Shown one piece after another: positions 19,504-27,474 of a DNA stretch of 33,463 nt; positions within the stretch are counted from its first letter, which is position 1, and every line of letters starts with the position of its first letter. Position numbers and translations under genes: made by a program. Source of the stretch: a virus. Its lineage: Duplodnaviria > Heunggongvirae > Uroviricota > Caudoviricetes. The notes under the pieces are model-generated. The model ran no database searches and had not been told where the DNA came from. It was given only the letters and a program-made list of their open reading frames with translations. The stretch lies in IMG/VR virus record IMGVR_UViG_2548876860_000012, positions 1-33,463 of that record, one strand, 5' to 3'.

Positions 19504-20256
19504 TTATCTTGTCACTCTCCTCAATTGTGTCTCAGCATATGCTTCTTCCTGCCAGCACTTTGTCACCAGTTTATCAATGACATCTGCATATCCTTTGTAC
19601 CACTGATAATCCGTCAGGTCTGGTACCAGCTTCTGGACATGATGCCGCGCCAGTGTGGTTGGTAAACGACTAAACCGGTTTCCATTGCAACGCCCACAAA
19701 TCTTATAAACAGGCGTGCCATGAAGCCGGGTTCTTTTTTCATCCAGGATAATACCTTTACCCTTACATCCTCTGCACGCCGTGCTGACTTCTCCCTTACC
19801 ATGACAATGCTGACATAGTTCCTTCACCCTCTCTGCCTTGATAATGGATTCCCCGCTTCTGGAGTGTTTCACCACTTCGCGCAATACATTATGAAATCCA
19901 GTACCAGCACAATGCTCACAGCGAGCCTTACTTGCCGCAGACCTGGAATAATCAGCAAAGGCAAAATTCACAAGGTAAGGGATGATCTGTAACCGGGTTT
20001 CTTCACTCAATTTGTTCAATGTCGGGTTATCCAGTGCCATCGCGTAATTGAGCAGACCTTCAATCGCAAACTGAGGATCCTGAACACCAACTTTTGCCAG
20101 GAATAAGGCAAAACCCAGTGGTGCTTTCGACTGCACCATCCCCTGCGCAGCCATCACATCTGTAATTGTTAAACCACCAGAGCCTGTCGCCGGTGCGTCA
20201 TCACTCAATTTTGGAGATTTTGGGGAGTAATATTTTGGTAAGGCTTCAAGGTTCAT
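19504..20256 (-). CDS. Putative late antiterminator Q
   Basis: 250-aa ORF with clustered Cys motifs (CEHCAGTG, CQHCHGKG, CRGCKGKG, CGRCNGNR), placed immediately upstream of the terminator and lysis cassette. Confidence 0.5.
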   Translation of the reverse strand: MNLEALPKYYSPKSPKLSDDAPATGSGGLTITDVMAAQGMVQSKAPLGFALFLAKVGVQDPQFAIEGLLNYAMALDNPTLNKLSEETRLQIIPYLVNFAFADYSRSAASKARCEHCAGTGFHNVLREVVKHSRSGESIIKAERVKELCQHCHGKGEVSTACRGCKGKGIILDEKRTRLHGTPVYKICGRCNGNRFSRLPTTLARHHVQKLVPDLTDYQWYKGYADVIDKLVTKCWQEEAYAETQLRRVTR

Positions 20257-22083: not shown

Positions 22084-22473
22084 TCAGGCGGCTGCACCCG
22101 CCGTTTTCTCGTACTTACTGATAGTGATCTCGACCTTCCCTTCCGGGATAACCGGTCCCCACTCCACCAGCATTCTTTTCACCTGACTGTCGTCTTCCCA
22201 CACACCCGCGTGGGTCAGGGCGTCAAACAGCGCCTTGTTATAGTTGTCCAGATCGCGGATCCGGTTATCCGGTGGAAACAACACGATCTCCACTGCAGCA
22301 GGTGCCGACGTTGGTTTCGGCAGACGACGTAACTGCTCAACTATTGCTGTGCACGCCGCGCTCTGGAATTTTCGCCCCGCCGTGCTTATCAGGCTCTTAC
22401 CAGCAAACGCCCCTTTGTTGGGGTGTCGCCAGTACGTGTTCACGCTGGGCGGAAAAGGCAGAATAAGCTTCAT
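22084..22473 (-). CDS. rusA: Holliday junction resolvase RusA
   Basis: 129-aa ORF; DLDNYNKALFDALTHAGVWEDDSQV matches the RusA catalytic core (DLDNL.KA.FDALT.AG.W.DD.QV). Confidence 0.85.
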   Translation of the reverse strand: MKLILPFPPSVNTYWRHPNKGAFAGKSLISTAGRKFQSAACTAIVEQLRRLPKPTSAPAAVEIVLFPPDNRIRDLDNYNKALFDALTHAGVWEDDSQVKRMLVEWGPVIPEGKVEITISKYEKTAGAAA

Positions 22474-22829
22474 ACTTTCAGGCCCCTCTCATGTAACCAG
22501 TGGGCTGCACGCAGCCTGGCGTTTTCCTCACCGGCAAGCAGTGAGCGGATAATCCCGACCGCCTCGCTGTCGTCGTCCTTCACCGCGGTATGAAGCGTTA
22601 TCCCCCGGGCCACGCCACGCTTTATCGTGATGACGCCTTTTTTCTCCAGCGCACGAAGATGCTCCACCGCTGCATTCACCGAACGGTATCCCAGCATGGT
22701 TGCCACCTCCTGATTGGTTGGCGGGAAGCCACGTTCTTTCTGATAAGAAATCAGCATATCCAGCACCTGCTGCTGGCATTGAGTTAACGTCGTCATTAAG
22801 CCCCCACGTAATTCCCTGACAGATACCAC
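22470..22829 (-). CDS. LexA N-terminal DNA-binding-domain-like protein without S24 peptidase domain
   Basis: LTQCQQQVLDMLISYQKERGFPPTNQEVATMLGYRSVNAAVEHLRALEKKGVITIKRGVARGITL parallels the LexA N-terminal domain; the ORF ends after about 119 aa with no protease domain. Confidence 0.6.
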   Translation of the reverse strand: MVSVRELRGGLMTTLTQCQQQVLDMLISYQKERGFPPTNQEVATMLGYRSVNAAVEHLRALEKKGVITIKRGVARGITLHTAVKDDDSEAVGIIRSLLAGEENARLRAAHWLHERGLKV

Positions 22830-23290
22830 TCTTCACCCGATGCAGCGCGCTTGCTTCTTTTCCGTAAGCACCGCTCACGACGCGCCAGAAAATTGTTTCG
22901 TTCTGGCTGGGAGTGGCTTTCACGGAATGCCGCCATCCACACCGTTGCAGCACGACGGTATAAGCCCCTGGACTCCAGTTCTTCAGCCTGGCGGGTCAGG
23001 CACAAAATCACCCGGGGATCGTTAGTGCCGACATAGAAATTGCGCACAGGTCTGGTTTCACGAACTGGTTGTGGTTCCGACTCCTGCGCTCTCTCAGTCA
23101 GGCGCGGGAAATGTCTGCGTGTATCTCCTTCACAACGGTGAGCCACACGCCCACTCTGACGTAACTTGCTTGCTGACTGCAGAACGCGCTGCCGTGAGTA
23201 ACCTGCAAAAGCATCCGCAATGTCTCCGGAAGTACAGCCCGGATGGGCTTCAATGAATTTCTGAACGTCATTCAAAAGACTCATGCTCAC
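22796..23290 (-). CDS. Putative PerC/ANR-like regulator
   Basis: 164-aa basic ORF; the segment AEELESRGLYRRAATVWMAAF resembles PerC-family motifs. Weak call. Confidence 0.3.
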   Translation of the reverse strand: MSMSLLNDVQKFIEAHPGCTSGDIADAFAGYSRQRVLQSASKLRQSGRVAHRCEGDTRRHFPRLTERAQESEPQPVRETRPVRNFYVGTNDPRVILCLTRQAEELESRGLYRRAATVWMAAFRESHSQPERNNFLARRERCLRKRSKRAASGEEWYLSGNYVGA

Positions 23291-24228
23291 CCCCTGAATC
23301 CTGCCGGGATCTGGCTGTAGTCCACATTGTCGTAACTGGCTTTGAAGTACGGGTCTTCGCGTTTTTCTGTGTACGTGCTGACGGACGGCGATAAGCGCAG
23401 GGAAAGCTCATCCCATTTTTCCCGCAGCTTCGACGGGCTGAGCACGTTACGGCACCAGAACGGATCGCGGCTGACGCGGCTGTACATCTCGCAGATTTGT
23501 TTGTGAGTACGACCATCCTGCACACACATCAGGCGTATTTCGTTTGCCCATGCTGTCCAGTTCGGTTCTTTGGGACGTACCACTTCGCCGTCACATTCGG
23601 CGGCCTGCTCGTACAGAGCGATGATTTTTTTCCAGAGCCACTGTGCGCAGGTCAAATCATCCTGCGTCCCCCACTGGCGCTTTTTAGGGCTGAATACAAC
23701 CGCATCAGGATGGCGAGTTAAAAAATCCTGTTCAGCCGTCTGCGTGTCCGGTTGCGAAGCGTCCGGACGAGAAGGTTTTTTATCTGACGGATCATGTTTT
23801 GATTTTACTGACGGATCCCCGCCAGATTCTGACGGGTGAAAACCCGCTTTTTTGCCAGATTTCGACGCATCAAATTTTGACGGGTCAGATTTTGATGCGT
23901 CAGATTTTGACGGGTCAGAATCTGACAGTTGAGAAAATGCCGCTGCCTGAAGCTTCGCAACGTTAAGCTGATAAACATTCGACGCATTGCGGTTACCCTG
24001 GCGACGCGCCTTACGCGTTAACCAGCCTTCTGCTTCCAGCCGTGCGATAGCCGTTCTGACGGTACTCATTCCCGCGCCAATCTGGCGGGCAATGGTTTCA
24101 ATTGATGGCCAGCACACACCTTCGTCATTACTGAAATCAGCCAGGCGGGCCATAATTGCCACGCTGGATAATTTCATGCCTGATGCAGCGCAACCATCCC
24201 ATACATAGCCGGTTAATTTAGTGCTCAT
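23287..24228 (-). CDS. Replication initiation protein (O-like) with iteron-encoded linker
   Basis: 313-aa ORF with an HTH-like N-terminus, an internal repetitive linker (DPSKSDASKSDPSKFDASKS) encoded by 15-bp DNA repeats, and a C-terminal domain. Confidence 0.65.
   Translation of the reverse strand: MSTKLTGYVWDGCAASGMKLSSVAIMARLADFSNDEGVCWPSIETIARQIGAGMSTVRTAIARLEAEGWLTRKARRQGNRNASNVYQLNVAKLQAAAFSQLSDSDPSKSDASKSDPSKFDASKSGKKAGFHPSESGGDPSVKSKHDPSDKKPSRPDASQPDTQTAEQDFLTRHPDAVVFSPKKRQWGTQDDLTCAQWLWKKIIALYEQAAECDGEVVRPKEPNWTAWANEIRLMCVQDGRTHKQICEMYSRVSRDPFWCRNVLSPSKLREKWDELSLRLSPSVSTYTEKREDPYFKASYDNVDYSQIPAGFRG
23783..23930. repeat. Iteron-like direct repeats (candidate replication origin) inside the replication gene
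   Basis: About eight copies of a TGACGG(G/A)TCA-like core (tctgacggatca, actgacggatcc, tctgacgggtga, ttcgacgcatca, tttgacgggtca, tttgatgcgtca, tttgacgggtca, tctgacagttga); the last four are at 15-bp period. Confidence 0.6.
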
Positions 24229-24237
24229 GACCGACCT

Positions 24238-24576
24238 CTATTTCCCTGAATTTACGACGAAACTGTTCGAGCGGGCTGAAGCACTCATGCTCATAGCCTT
24301 CGCGGAGGTAGATAACACGTTGTGTTTCCGGCTCCCAACGAATGACTCTGACGGGCACTCCGTAGTGATCTTTGAACCAGCGGTTAACTTGTCGCAAAGG
24401 ACTGTCTCCTTCTGCCGGTTGAAATCACCCACAGCCCACTCTGCAAAGCTGTGGGTTACAATTTCCCTGTCACCTGGTACATTTACTGCATAGCAATACT
24501 CCACCTTCGCTTTTCCACCCGGTACAGGAAGCGCAATCAGTTGCGAGCGACGGTAGTGTGTTGTTAAACTGTTCAT
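24238..24576 (-). CDS. Hypothetical early protein; frame ambiguity near the 3' end
   Basis: 112-aa track ORF. A different frame over the 3' half gives a more protein-like product ([45 protein letters not shown]) with no ATG start. Confidence 0.3.
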
Positions 24577-25416: not shown

Positions 25417-25532
25417 ACCTTTCTCCTCCGAAATTCAGAGGGATGATGCTACTTAAAATAGCAAAATGCAACTACTTAAAATAGAAATGACTAGCGTATG
25501 TGATGCGAGTAATCTTCTACCTATGGTAGAAG
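25417..25532. promoter_or_regulatory. Divergent immunity promoter/operator region (OR-like)
   Basis: Two copies of the 13-mer CTACTTAAAATAG 23 bp apart (25449-25461 and 25472-25484) between cro-like and cI-like genes, plus an inverted repeat CTTCTACC-TAT-GGTAGAAG at 25514-25532. Confidence 0.6.
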
Positions 25533-26227
25533 AACAGAAGTATCCAGATTTCGCCAAGAGACTAAACGAGCTAATGACAAACAAGGGAATTTCTGTCACC
25601 CAACTCAAAAGTCTTGTGGGCGTTACATATGAAATGGCGCGGCGATACACAATCGGCGCTGCGAAGCCTCGTGCCTCTGTCATGAATAAACTTGCATTGG
25701 CTCTGGGGGTATCAGCTTCATATTTAGAATATGGTGTTGGCGAGAGAGAAGGATGTAAGGAAATGGCAAGCATCCCCAATCCAACAAAACCCGATGTATA
25801 CAGGATAGAAGTTTTGGATCTTAGCGTTAGCGCAGGACCTGGGACCTATATGCTTTCAGACTATGTTGATGTGCTCTACGCCATTGAGTTCACAACAGAG
25901 CATGCCCGTTCTCTTTTCGGTAATCGTTCTCAAGATGATATTAAAGTTATGACTGTAAATGGCGACAGCATGTCCCCTACTCTAGTTTCCGGAGATCGAC
26001 TGTTTGTCGACATTTCTGTTCGCAACTTCCAAACTGATGGTGTTTACTCTTTCGTTTATGGTAAGACGTTCCACGTTAAACGTCTACAAATGCAAGGCAA
26101 CAAACTCGCCGTTCTTTCGGATAATCCAGCCTATGAGAAATGGTACATTGATGAGAAGTCCCAAGATCAACTTTATGTTATGGGCAAAGCATTGATACAC
26201 GAATCAATTAAATACAACCGGCTTTAG
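25466..26227 (+). CDS. CI-type prophage repressor (HTH plus S24 LexA-like peptidase domain)
   Basis: 253-aa ORF with an HTH N-terminus (ISVTQLKSLVGVTYEMARRY) and S24 motif VNGDSMSPTL. Start is ambiguous (25466 or the internal ATG at 25523). Confidence 0.8.
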   Translation: MQLLKIEMTSVCDASNLLPMVEEQKYPDFAKRLNELMTNKGISVTQLKSLVGVTYEMARRYTIGAAKPRASVMNKLALALGVSASYLEYGVGEREGCKEMASIPNPTKPDVYRIEVLDLSVSAGPGTYMLSDYVDVLYAIEFTTEHARSLFGNRSQDDIKVMTVNGDSMSPTLVSGDRLFVDISVRNFQTDGVYSFVYGKTFHVKRLQMQGNKLAVLSDNPAYEKWYIDEKSQDQLYVMGKALIHESIKYNRL

Positions 26228-26397: not shown

Positions 26398-27474
26398 ATG
26401 ACAAAATCAATTTGTTTTTTTAATCATAAAGGTGGGGTAAGTAAAACCACAACAACCTTCAATCTTGGATGGGCACTTGCGGATGAAGGCAAGAAAGTAT
26501 TGATGGTTGACCTTGATTCGCAATGTAATCTAACAGGAATGGTTCTTGGCTATGAAAAGATTGATGAGGGTTTAGATTCTTTTTATTCTAGCAGAGATAA
26601 CTTAACTCTTGGACCTATTGTAGAATATTTGATTAATGGCGGACAACCTGAAGCATACCTTGAAAAAGAAACGGGAAAATTACACCCTACACTGCATGAA
26701 AACCTTCTGCTTCTTCCCGGACATTTAGATGTTTCGGACTTAGATTCACAGATAAGTGTTTCTCTAAAAATTGCTGCTGGTATTCCTGCTACAAGAAATA
26801 TACCAGGGAACCTGCCAAAAATATTACAGCTAATCGCCTTGAAGAATAATATTGATTACATTCTTTATGATCTCAGCCCTAATGTTGGAGGTTTAAATGA
26901 AGTAGTTCTCATGTCAAGTGACTATTTTATCGTACCTGTAGCTCCAGACTTTTTTTGCTGGCAAGCAATTCGCTCTCTCTCAAAAAATATACCTCGCTGG
27001 CACAAAGAATTAGCATTATTTAAAGAAAATAATGATGGTAACTCTTCACAATCAATTAAAAATGCACCGCAGTTTCTAGGCATGATTCAGCAGAGATACA
27101 GGCCGCGTAAAGGAGCACCTGTAAAATCTTTCGAAAAATGGATGGCAGCTATCCGTGATGCTGTTGATTCGATCTTAGTGCCAAATCTAGAAAAAATTAC
27201 CTGCATAATTCCACGAGATAAAGTGCAACATGCAATTAACAAAACAACAGTCAGTGGAGATTTATCAGCCTATGATCTTGCGCATATTTCCGATTTCAAC
27301 TCATTAATCGCAATAAGCCAACAACTAGCGACACCTGTTTTCTCCATCAGTGATCAGCAAATTCGCGATTCAGGGCAATTTGGGCATGCCTTAAATACAA
27401 TGAAATCAAGCAGAGACGCCTTTAACGAACAATTTAAAGGGCTGGCTCAACGAGTTCTAGAACTTACAAAGTAA
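26398..27474 (+). CDS. Orphan ParA/MinD-family P-loop ATPase
   Basis: 358-aa ORF with deviant Walker A (NHKGGVSKTTTTFNL), A' (VLMVDLDSQ) and B-like (IDYILYDLSPN) motifs and AAGGA Shine-Dalgarno. AT-rich; no ParB-like partner in the window. Confidence 0.7.
   Translation: MTKSICFFNHKGGVSKTTTTFNLGWALADEGKKVLMVDLDSQCNLTGMVLGYEKIDEGLDSFYSSRDNLTLGPIVEYLINGGQPEAYLEKETGKLHPTLHENLLLLPGHLDVSDLDSQISVSLKIAAGIPATRNIPGNLPKILQLIALKNNIDYILYDLSPNVGGLNEVVLMSSDYFIVPVAPDFFCWQAIRSLSKNIPRWHKELALFKENNDGNSSQSIKNAPQFLGMIQQRYRPRKGAPVKSFEKWMAAIRDAVDSILVPNLEKITCIIPRDKVQHAINKTTVSGDLSAYDLAHISDFNSLIAISQQLATPVFSISDQQIRDSGQFGHALNTMKSSRDAFNEQFKGLAQRVLELTK

Follow-up and report, generated by a model that had tools for sequence, protein, structure and literature searches.

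What does a repeat array do when it lies within the coding sequence of a phage replication initiator? We addressed this question for IMG/VR virus record IMGVR_UViG_2548876860_000012, a Caudoviricetes sequence whose whole length of 33,463 nucleotides is called the window below. The gene in question (23287..24228, minus strand) codes for a 313-residue initiator and contains a cluster of short repeats. An earlier reading of this DNA (the original prediction) proposed that the cluster probably marks the phage origin. Our comparative analysis supports a similar view: we estimate a probability of roughly two in three that 23770-23930 functions in cis as the replication origin of a lambdoid prophage of the SfII/SfIV/CPS-53 type, situated in the linker-coding part of an HTH_36-type initiator gene. 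Selection acting at the DNA level, the position of the repeats in the linker, and their linkage to a single protein domain favor this interpretation. The repeat consensus first proposed, and the assumption that all copies belong to one class, did not hold.

The array had been described as eight TGACGG(G/A)TCA-like repeats within 23783-23930, four of them at an exact 15-bp period. The clustering is real and well beyond chance. Exact matches to TGACGGRTCA occur three times in the 33.5-kb window, all of them in the array (23785, 23878, and 23908). Seven positions within 23783-23930 match with at most two mismatches (23785, 23809, 23830, 23863, 23878, 23893, and 23908), compared with approximately 0.2 expected for the span at the window-wide chance rate. 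The eighth claimed copy, TGACAGTTGA at 23923, has three mismatches. Tandem Repeats Finder reported a 15-bp period array at 23856-23919 (4.3 copies, 81% matches) with a 30-bp super-period, and four to five copies are spaced at exactly 15 bp. We also confirmed that the array lies inside the 313-residue reading frame and codes for an S-D-x-S-K linker at residues ~100-150. The 10-mer itself, however, is mis-framed. TGACGGRTCA was rejected as the functional repeat: the triplet at its center coincides with the variable codon of the unit. The list of eight also mixes two classes because it includes both 11-mers and two CTGACGGATC boxes.

The conserved unit became apparent from initiator genes of phages at graded distances from the window and from 80 additional loci, nominally one per species and mostly from Enterobacterales, that were retrieved through the initiator N-terminal domain. 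Across the 80 species this unit is an 11-bp near-palindrome, TCARAWTCTGA in the sense of the gene. Its copies in the window lie at plus-strand positions 23915-25, 23900-10, 23885-95, 23870-80, 23855-65, and 23822-32. Five of them form an array with an exact 15-bp period (23855..23925) and represent candidate iterons; their gene-sense sequences are TCAGATTCTGA, TCAAAATCTGA, TCAAAATCTGA, TCAAAATTTGA, and TCGAAATCTGG. The sixth copy (TCAGAATCTGG in gene sense, 23822..23832) is isolated, lies 33 bp from the fifth, and adjoins an invariant block described below; its distance to the main array in relatives is usually 48 or 33 bp. Allowing at most one mismatch, we found 12 strand-hits of the 11-mer in the window (1.8 expected), 10 of which fall in the array. 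The motif logo reads T-C-A-R-A-W-T-C-T-G-A, and 24% of copies are perfect 5+1+5 palindromes. Initiator genes of relatives carry 3-10 copies each. Among 76 genes, 248 of 345 spacings are exactly 15 bp, and the density of the 11-mer in the linker zone is ~90 times that in the flanks. When the outermost motif positions were examined for symmetric co-variation (T..A to C..G), C/G pairs were in excess (50 versus ~23 expected), but the result is confounded by coding context and was set aside. An unusual linker was observed in the gene from Tatumella saanichensis (L085), where nucleotides ~330-560 hold at least three copies of a 60-bp super-repeat that codes for PQGPKSGLSESEGLKTGPSE and in which the motif variants CCGAAATCTGG and TCAGAGTCTGA alternate.

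A codon-by-codon view separated constraint on the DNA from constraint on the peptide. The part conserved at the DNA level, TCA-AAA-TCT-GAC, runs from the end of one originally proposed unit through the spacer into the beginning of the following one. The unit's middle codon changes freely at all three positions (CCG, GCA, ACA, GGG, and others). We calculated codon shares for 444 repeat units from 81 genes. The Ser that follows the variable codon is TCA in 93% of units, compared with 16% in other parts of these genes. AAA codes for Lys in 100% (62% elsewhere), the preceding Ser is TCT in 78% (9% elsewhere), and Asp is GAC in 70% (47% elsewhere). For conserved residues in the N-terminal domain of these genes, use of the majority codon averages 54%, and third positions in this domain are 45% identical to the window.

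The motif is also retained where the peptide is not. Two relatives (L006 and L081) have one 11-mer copy that is offset by 32 nucleotides and therefore read in another frame, coding for L-Q-N-L-T in L006, and yet it reads TCAGAATCTGA. Relatives with a 52-60% identical N-terminal domain have linkers such as HPPESGG and GPKSGRSESEPSESG over the same DNA motif, often in the form CCAGAATCTGG; the peptides HPPESGG, GPKSGRSESE, and EPSDFEPSDF all overlie it. In a viral contig with an N-terminal domain that is 32% identical (L178), the motif is inverted, the 15-bp period is kept, one copy is in another frame, and three GAACCGTCA boxes follow the array. Comparison across these genes shows that the segment behaves as a DNA element under purifying selection that is independent of the peptide. 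The selected entity is DNA rather than peptide, as synonymous sites are frozen, copies occur in other frames, different repeats accompany other N-terminal domains, and the array is constantly linked to one domain type.

This linkage was examined by scanning viral contigs for two adjacent 11-mers, a DNA pattern that uses no protein information. The scan returned 120 loci, and in 119 of them the array lies within ~90 nucleotides downstream of a homologue of the initiator N-terminal domain. Automatic scoring placed 117 arrays 4-79 nucleotides downstream of the homologue on the same strand. Two further loci have the same arrangement and had been mis-scored since the motif reads on both strands, and the exceptional locus is a 5'-truncated gene. 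HTH_36 initiators from phages of the same hosts whose N-terminal domain is 39-43% identical (the mEp460/SfV and 24B types) carry unrelated direct repeats in the same place: GTGCAGGAGATTCAC-type repeats in the mEp460/SfV initiators and three copies of GGGGTGGGGCAGGAGCTGCCC in that of 24B. The C-terminal domain is swapped among relatives, being of the yfdO type in the window, Phg_2220_C in phiNP and YeP2, and a third type in Stx2_KH16 and mEp460. The N-terminal domain and the array remain together despite this exchange. Residues S55, T56, V57, and T59 and residues R75, R76, G78, R80, S83, N84, Y86, L88, and N89 of the N-terminal domain are invariant. They fall in the stretches that, by analogy with winged-helix proteins, are predicted to form the recognition helix and wing, in agreement with what would be expected for a constant motif.

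Past the array in the direction of transcription, and after a variable spacer, lies a 57-bp block of nearly invariant DNA (23785..23841) that contains the sixth 11-mer and both CTGACGGATC boxes. Its sequence is TTT-sAC-CCG-TCA-GAA-TCT-GGn-GGG-GAT-CCG-TCA-GTA-AAw-TCA-AAn-nnn-GAT-CCr-TCA. In a set of 68 genes from different species, third codon positions show a mean pairwise identity of 0.82 within the block, as against 0.44 for the N-terminal domain, and amino-acid identity is similar in the two regions (0.75 and 0.78, respectively). We counted codons in an alignment of 73 genes. Where the residue is retained, 97-100% of genes use GAA, GAT, GTA, and TCA in the block, and 92-93% use CCG/CCA. In the sixth 11-mer, GAA is the sole Glu codon (69/69 genes with Glu) and TCT codes for Ser in 69/71. 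The two CTGACGGATC boxes (23783-93 and 23807-17) are 24 bp apart, and each includes a Dam site (GATC at 23790-93 and 23814-17). At the first box all 73 genes use GAT for Asp, and at the second so does every one of the 64 genes with Asp there, compared with 53% GAT elsewhere, so GATC is kept by synonymous choice at both boxes. GATC is not enriched across the window (129 observed, 130 expected), and only these two boxes stand out. Their conservation suggests an influence of Dam methylation or SeqA.

An A+T-rich stretch, ATGTTTTGATTTTA, sits between the two boxes. A nearest-neighbor stability scan placed the minimum of the gene at 23770..23809, promoter-distal to the repeats and among the top 3-4% of all segments scanned in the 33-kb sequence. 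This 40-bp segment is 70% A+T and represents a candidate unwinding element. A composition profile likewise found the lowest 40-bp GC content (0.40) in and beside the repeat segment, with one further minimum at the 3' end of the gene. An adjacent A+T-rich unwinding element had been named as a feature to look for. The least stable DNA of the gene does adjoin the repeats but is only ~70% A+T, and no strongly A+T-rich element was found. No convincing oriC-type 13-mers were found near the array. A terminator-like hairpin on the plus strand, antisense to the initiator, was noted between the fifth and sixth 11-mers at 23833-23846 (CGGGTGAAAACCCG followed by CTTTTTTG). It is probably not conserved because its stem rests on codons that vary in relatives.

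The protein encoded around this DNA is a recognizable initiator of a particular type. Its N-terminus matches Pfam HTH_36 (residues 23-70, E=4e-11, 42.9 bits against a cut-off of 25), with weaker matches to DnaD_N and RP-C (RepC-N). The Pfam scan listed HTH_36, GntR, HTH_29, PaaX, DnaD_N, RP-C, and MarR, and Phage_rep_O was absent from the matches at E<=0.01. The initiator is thus not a member of the lambda-O family. PHROG 391 ('replication initiation O-like') covers residues 1-313 with E=8e-136. We divide the protein into an N-terminal winged-helix domain (residues ~1-97), a repeat-encoded linker (~98-165), and a helical C-terminal domain of the yfdO type (~166-313). The C-terminal domain gave no Pfam match even at E<=10, a PDB sequence search matched nothing outside the winged helix, and Foldseek found no fold match for it in the PDB at E<=0.001. 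A search of NCBIfam for its identity returned generic helix-turn-helix families only. An AlphaFold model of the domain is helical with a predicted local distance difference test score of 72; the start of the model (11 residues, 161-171) has low confidence.

The gene is widespread. It is 98-99% identical at the nucleotide level to replication genes of Shigella phages SfII and SfIV, phage Kati, and several Escherichia phages, and at least 80% of it is matched in 1,576 of 5,426 complete E. coli genomes. Phage SfIV has been isolated and characterized, and the authors named its orf41-45 a 'replication module'; no origin is described in that paper. Truncated or interrupted chromosomal copies were observed. 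The Rouxiella badensis gene (L057) has a stop directly after the sixth 11-mer, a Brenneria sp. copy (L084) has a stop at codon 108, and unrelated sequence begins beyond codon 79 in E. coli ECDA1023 (L064). Decay of the initiator gene in cryptic prophages seems to be common. Enterobacterial-type initiator genes with 66-89% identical N-terminal domains were also seen in assemblies named Vagococcus sp. (L018), Chryseobacterium sp. (L042), Martelella alba (L047), and Pseudomonas lundensis (L079), which are probably cases of contamination or mislabeling. A protein named SrsR is also recorded for 'Martelella alba'.

SrsR (YgfI) is a LysR-type protein of E. coli, and its strongest genomic SELEX (systematic evolution of ligands by exponential enrichment) peak is the 'yfdO/yfdP spacer' of the cryptic prophage CPS-53 (Kobayashi et al. 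2022, PMC9181523). The intensity of this peak was 1206, and none of the other nine exceeded 288. DNase I footprinting with 10-40 uM protein showed protection of 66 bp containing four 11-bp boxes (TCAaATTTTGa, TCAGATTTTGa, TCAGATTTTGa, and TCAGAgTcTGa), and yfdO and yfdK mRNA levels were lower in an srsR mutant and higher upon overexpression (PMC9181523). The paper mentions neither an origin nor iterons (0 occurrences of 'iteron'; PMC9181523). We aligned NC_000913.3 with the window and found that the four published boxes are the 11-mers at 23870, 23885, 23900, and 23915, with one box differing by one nucleotide. MG1655 and the window differ at two nucleotides across the whole repeat and GATC segment. 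The SrsR box array of K-12 and the array in the window are the same DNA. In CPS-53 (L091, MG1655 2472878-2473604), a deletion took initiator codons 1 to ~77, with a break near window position 23995, and joined what is left of the gene to the yfdP side. The yfdO annotation, of 122 residues, covers the C-terminal domain only. The array looks intergenic in K-12 because the first ~77 codons of the initiator were lost while the array and GATC block survived. The original prediction missed this published footprint. The identity of the array with the SrsR boxes is a new and testable connection.

If 23770-23930 is an origin, we propose that it would operate as follows. The initiator would bind the 11-mers through its N-terminal domain, probably as dimers because the motif has a dyad. 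Bound initiators would then build a nucleoprotein complex, as in the lambda O-some, and this complex would strain and open the adjacent GATC/A+T stretch. The helical C-terminal domain may bring in host DnaB with the help of host DnaC or through another host route. At the origin, SrsR may have a modulating role or may compete with the initiator.

Several observations weigh against this interpretation. We searched the literature and found no experiment on initiator binding or origin activity for this initiator family. The only demonstrated binder of the array is the host protein SrsR, in vitro. The motif is unchanged while the N-terminal domain diverges to 52-60% identity (32% in L178), which would also fit a conserved host factor. 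Centre-to-centre spacing of 15 bp puts neighboring sites near opposite faces of the helix, an unusual arrangement for a wrapped O-some. The candidate unwinding element, at 70% A+T and in the top 3-4% of the window, is much weaker than the lambda A+T tract, and neither a DnaA box (TTATNCACA, at most one mismatch) nor an integration host factor consensus is present in 23200-24450. Finally, no recognizable relative of the C-terminal domain was found by Pfam, PDB sequence, or PDB fold searches.

The strongest competing explanation is that the array serves mainly as a platform for SrsR, which would activate the downstream early genes (yfdN onward) or the divergent genes, or act as a host factor at this site; the phage would keep the array for this purpose, with no need for the initiator to bind it. 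The SELEX peak, footprint, and mRNA response in K-12 speak for this explanation (PMC9181523), as does the constancy of the motif in the face of N-terminal domain divergence. Named proteins with at least 62% identity to SrsR occur in Citrobacter, Kosakonia, Klebsiella, Yersinia, Hafnia, and Sodalis, a set that overlaps with the genera carrying the array, and the distribution of SrsR is compatible with a host-factor role because orthologues are named in several array-carrying genera. The array is also present in Proteus, Providencia, Pantoea, and Rahnella, and no SrsR-like name was seen for these genera, but the list is incomplete and this argument is weak. Against the explanation, the array never occurs away from the initiator N-terminal domain in the pattern-only scan, save at the truncated gene. 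Phages of the same hosts that have another N-terminal domain carry other repeats, which is unexpected for a host-factor site. The footprint was obtained with 10-40 uM protein, the 'intergenic promoter' setting applies to K-12 only while the array lies mid-gene in intact phages, and the invariant GATC block is left unexplained. We consider a primary role for SrsR unlikely. A related idea, to which we also give only a small chance, is that SrsR is a genuine player at the origin of a widespread family of enterobacterial temperate phages, where it competes or cooperates with the initiator. If so, the dominant genomic target of SrsR would be a phage iteron array; competition would amount to a stationary-phase brake or defense, cooperation would make SrsR a recruited host factor, and part of the published K-12 'SrsR regulon' phenotype would be a relic of a phage-origin interaction.

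A second alternative treats the linker as a recombination junction, a boundary between N- and C-terminal modules that is homogenized by exchange or gene conversion and has no cis function. The occurrence of at least three unrelated C-terminal domain types behind the same N-terminal domain and linker agrees with this model, and megablast matches break nearby (mEp460_4F5 matches the C-terminal half only, and phiNP matches the N-terminal half plus the array only). Exchange, however, would homogenize whole tracts, and what we observed is a frozen 11-bp motif separated by 4-bp spacers and a middle codon that vary freely. Recent exchange cannot account for a motif that is inverted and partly in another frame in a 32%-identical relative, and the 15-bp phasing is strict. 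We regard the junction model as improbable. The lambda origin also lies at such a junction, so the two ideas are not exclusive.

RNA or single-stranded DNA structure provides a third explanation, in which hairpins control translation or transcription of the initiator mRNA or act, on unwound DNA, as signals for priming or for assembly of a primosome. Folding of the sense transcript of 23760-23950 gave -56.4 kcal/mol (shuffle mean -41.3, z = -3.8), and the plus-strand hairpin at 23833-23846 ends in a T-run. Arrays of near-palindromes fold well in any case, though, and the stems here would be 4-5 bp. The hairpin at 23833-46 rests on codons that vary between relatives, and the constrained motif center (A-W-T) suits a protein site and not a loop. 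We consider a structural element very improbable. The least credible proposal, that the repeats are a coding by-product of a low-complexity, flexible S-D-P-S-K linker that changes by slippage and has no DNA-level function, is in keeping with the 3-10 copies among relatives, the low-complexity peptide, and the low model confidence at residues 161-171, but it is contradicted by comparative data, namely frozen synonymous sites across 80 species, against near-saturation of third positions in the rest of the gene, copies in other frames, and unlike peptides (HPPESGG, GPKSGRSESE, and EPSDFEPSDF) encoded by the same motif.

The genes around the initiator form a lambdoid early region. A cI-like repressor gene (25466-26227, plus strand) is accompanied by Cro/YdaS-like, CII (CP76)-like, and DUF4222 genes that lead to the initiator. 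Downstream of the initiator are genes for a PerC-like protein, a protein with only a LexA DNA-binding domain, RusA, KilA-N, DUF968, and Q. The early-left genes code for ParA-like, DUF2303, YfbR-like, and integrase proteins. The original prediction had the next genes correct as PerC-like and LexA-like, as judged from Pfam matches, and also stated correctly that no P/DnaC-like loader follows. We recognized no helicase, loader, or primase domain in the early region or anywhere from the integrase to the late genes in the window, and a loader or helicase gene directly after the initiator, as in the lambda O/P arrangement, is not present.

The gene directly upstream of the initiator codes for a 59-residue DUF4222 protein with a TTG start (24218..24397, minus strand; Pfam DUF4222 E=9e-19; PHROG 1343) and overlaps the initiator start by 11 nucleotides. 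Of 75 related loci, 60 have a DUF4222 homologue immediately before the initiator on the same strand, and the protein could be a partner of the initiator. A 112-codon reading frame at 24238-24576 (minus strand, PHROG 1170; orf40 in the SfIV annotation) overlaps the DUF4222 frame in a different frame. The two share 160 nucleotides and both match phage families; both may be real, or they may be linked by a frameshift.

On the other side, the PerC-like gene (22796..23290, minus strand; yfdN homologue; Pfam PerC E=3e-8; PHROG 1324 'transcriptional activator') overlaps the initiator stop by 4 nucleotides and occupies the position of the lambda helicase loader. It is not a fixed partner because it is the downstream neighbor in just 4 of 75 related loci. 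In 36 of the 75 genome loci, the gene after the initiator is adenine-methylase-like (17, phiNP and Kp1LV types) or annotated as a 3'-phosphoadenosine-5'-phosphosulfate (PAPS) reductase (19), and genes resembling these two kinds also follow the initiators of L002, L003, L004, L009, and L010. The window is like SfIV in having PerC-like and LexA-domain genes at this place instead of a methylase or PAPS reductase. The presence of a methylase gene beside a candidate origin with two conserved GATC sites may be significant. The LexA-domain protein (22470-22829, minus strand, 119 residues, E=4e-19) is without an S24 peptidase domain and could be a non-cleavable LexA mimic or competitor at SOS boxes.

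Two further genes deserve mention. A ParA/MinD-like P-loop ATPase of 358 residues (26398-27474, plus strand; AAA_31, CbiA) is encoded just past the cI-like repressor on the early-left side, an odd location for a lambdoid prophage. It could function in partition, exclusion, or defense. The Q-type antiterminator (19504-20256, minus strand, 250 residues, Antiterm domain) contains, in addition, a zinc-finger region of the DnaJ CXXCXGXG type, with a match (E=2e-7) that falls short of the Pfam cut-off.

These results provide a probable origin with exact coordinates and a motif for a replication module that occurs very commonly in Enterobacterales, E. coli and Shigella among them, and is carried by the cryptic prophage CPS-53 of K-12 as well as by the serotype-converting phages SfII and SfIV. 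The element is of a classical kind, and the origin of this initiator family appears to be undescribed in the literature we searched: no origin description was found for SfV, SfII, SfIV, or yfdO, and a paper on the replication regions of 'Eru' Shiga toxin (Stx) phages does not discuss iterons. An initiator without a recognizable loader makes the module a candidate system for studying how such phages load host DnaB. The array is a clean example of overlapping constraints, in which a DNA motif is kept across frames and orientations while the encoded linker drifts. The 'SrsR box' can be reread as a remnant of a phage origin within a decapitated initiator gene, which alters the reading of the regulon.

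We compared the element with known origins. The original prediction held that the array mirrors the lambda ori iterons in gene O. The likeness is apt for the location of the repeats at an inter-domain linker and for the promoter-distal position of the least stable DNA, but not for the protein. The lambda origin and the origins of Stx phages, which have six iterons, lie midway along the initiator gene, where the linker between DNA-binding and recruiting domains is encoded (PMC7466680). As in the window, they consist of direct repeats with internal dyads followed promoter-distally by the easiest-melting DNA, and repeat number varies among relatives, which changes protein length (PMC7466680). The candidate origin differs from lambda in having an initiator of the HTH_36 and not the Phage_rep_O family, and in its 11-bp repeats at 15-bp phasing (lambda repeats are ~20 bp). 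Its A+T tract is weak (70%), it has two conserved GATC boxes, and no P- or DnaC-type loader gene follows.

Initiators of other phages offer a second comparison. In the phage L genome paper, short imprecise repeats within the initiator gene (an 11-bp unit present six times) were taken to indicate an origin, and each initiator type was reported to have its own repeats. The P22/phage L repeat, TGTCCAACGGA, is unrelated to TCARAWTCTGA, and the gene 18 initiators of these phages are paired with a phage DnaB-type helicase (gp12), whereas the window encodes none.

Plasmid-type origins are more distant. P1 oriR resembles the candidate element in that an array of initiator-binding repeats lies beside a short A+T-rich stretch with GATC-containing repeats; it has DnaA boxes, five GATC heptamers, and intergenic iterons. 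The window has no DnaA box within 600 bp, which sets it apart from DnaA-dependent plasmid-type iteron origins, and it has two GATC boxes, with the entire element in coding sequence. Weigel and Seitz reportedly defined 'initiator-solo' modules in a review. A further counterpart is the SrsR box array of CPS-53, which is the same DNA in a different setting: the K-12 gene has lost its head and its array has been read as an intergenic promoter, whereas the gene in the window is intact and carries the array in its middle.

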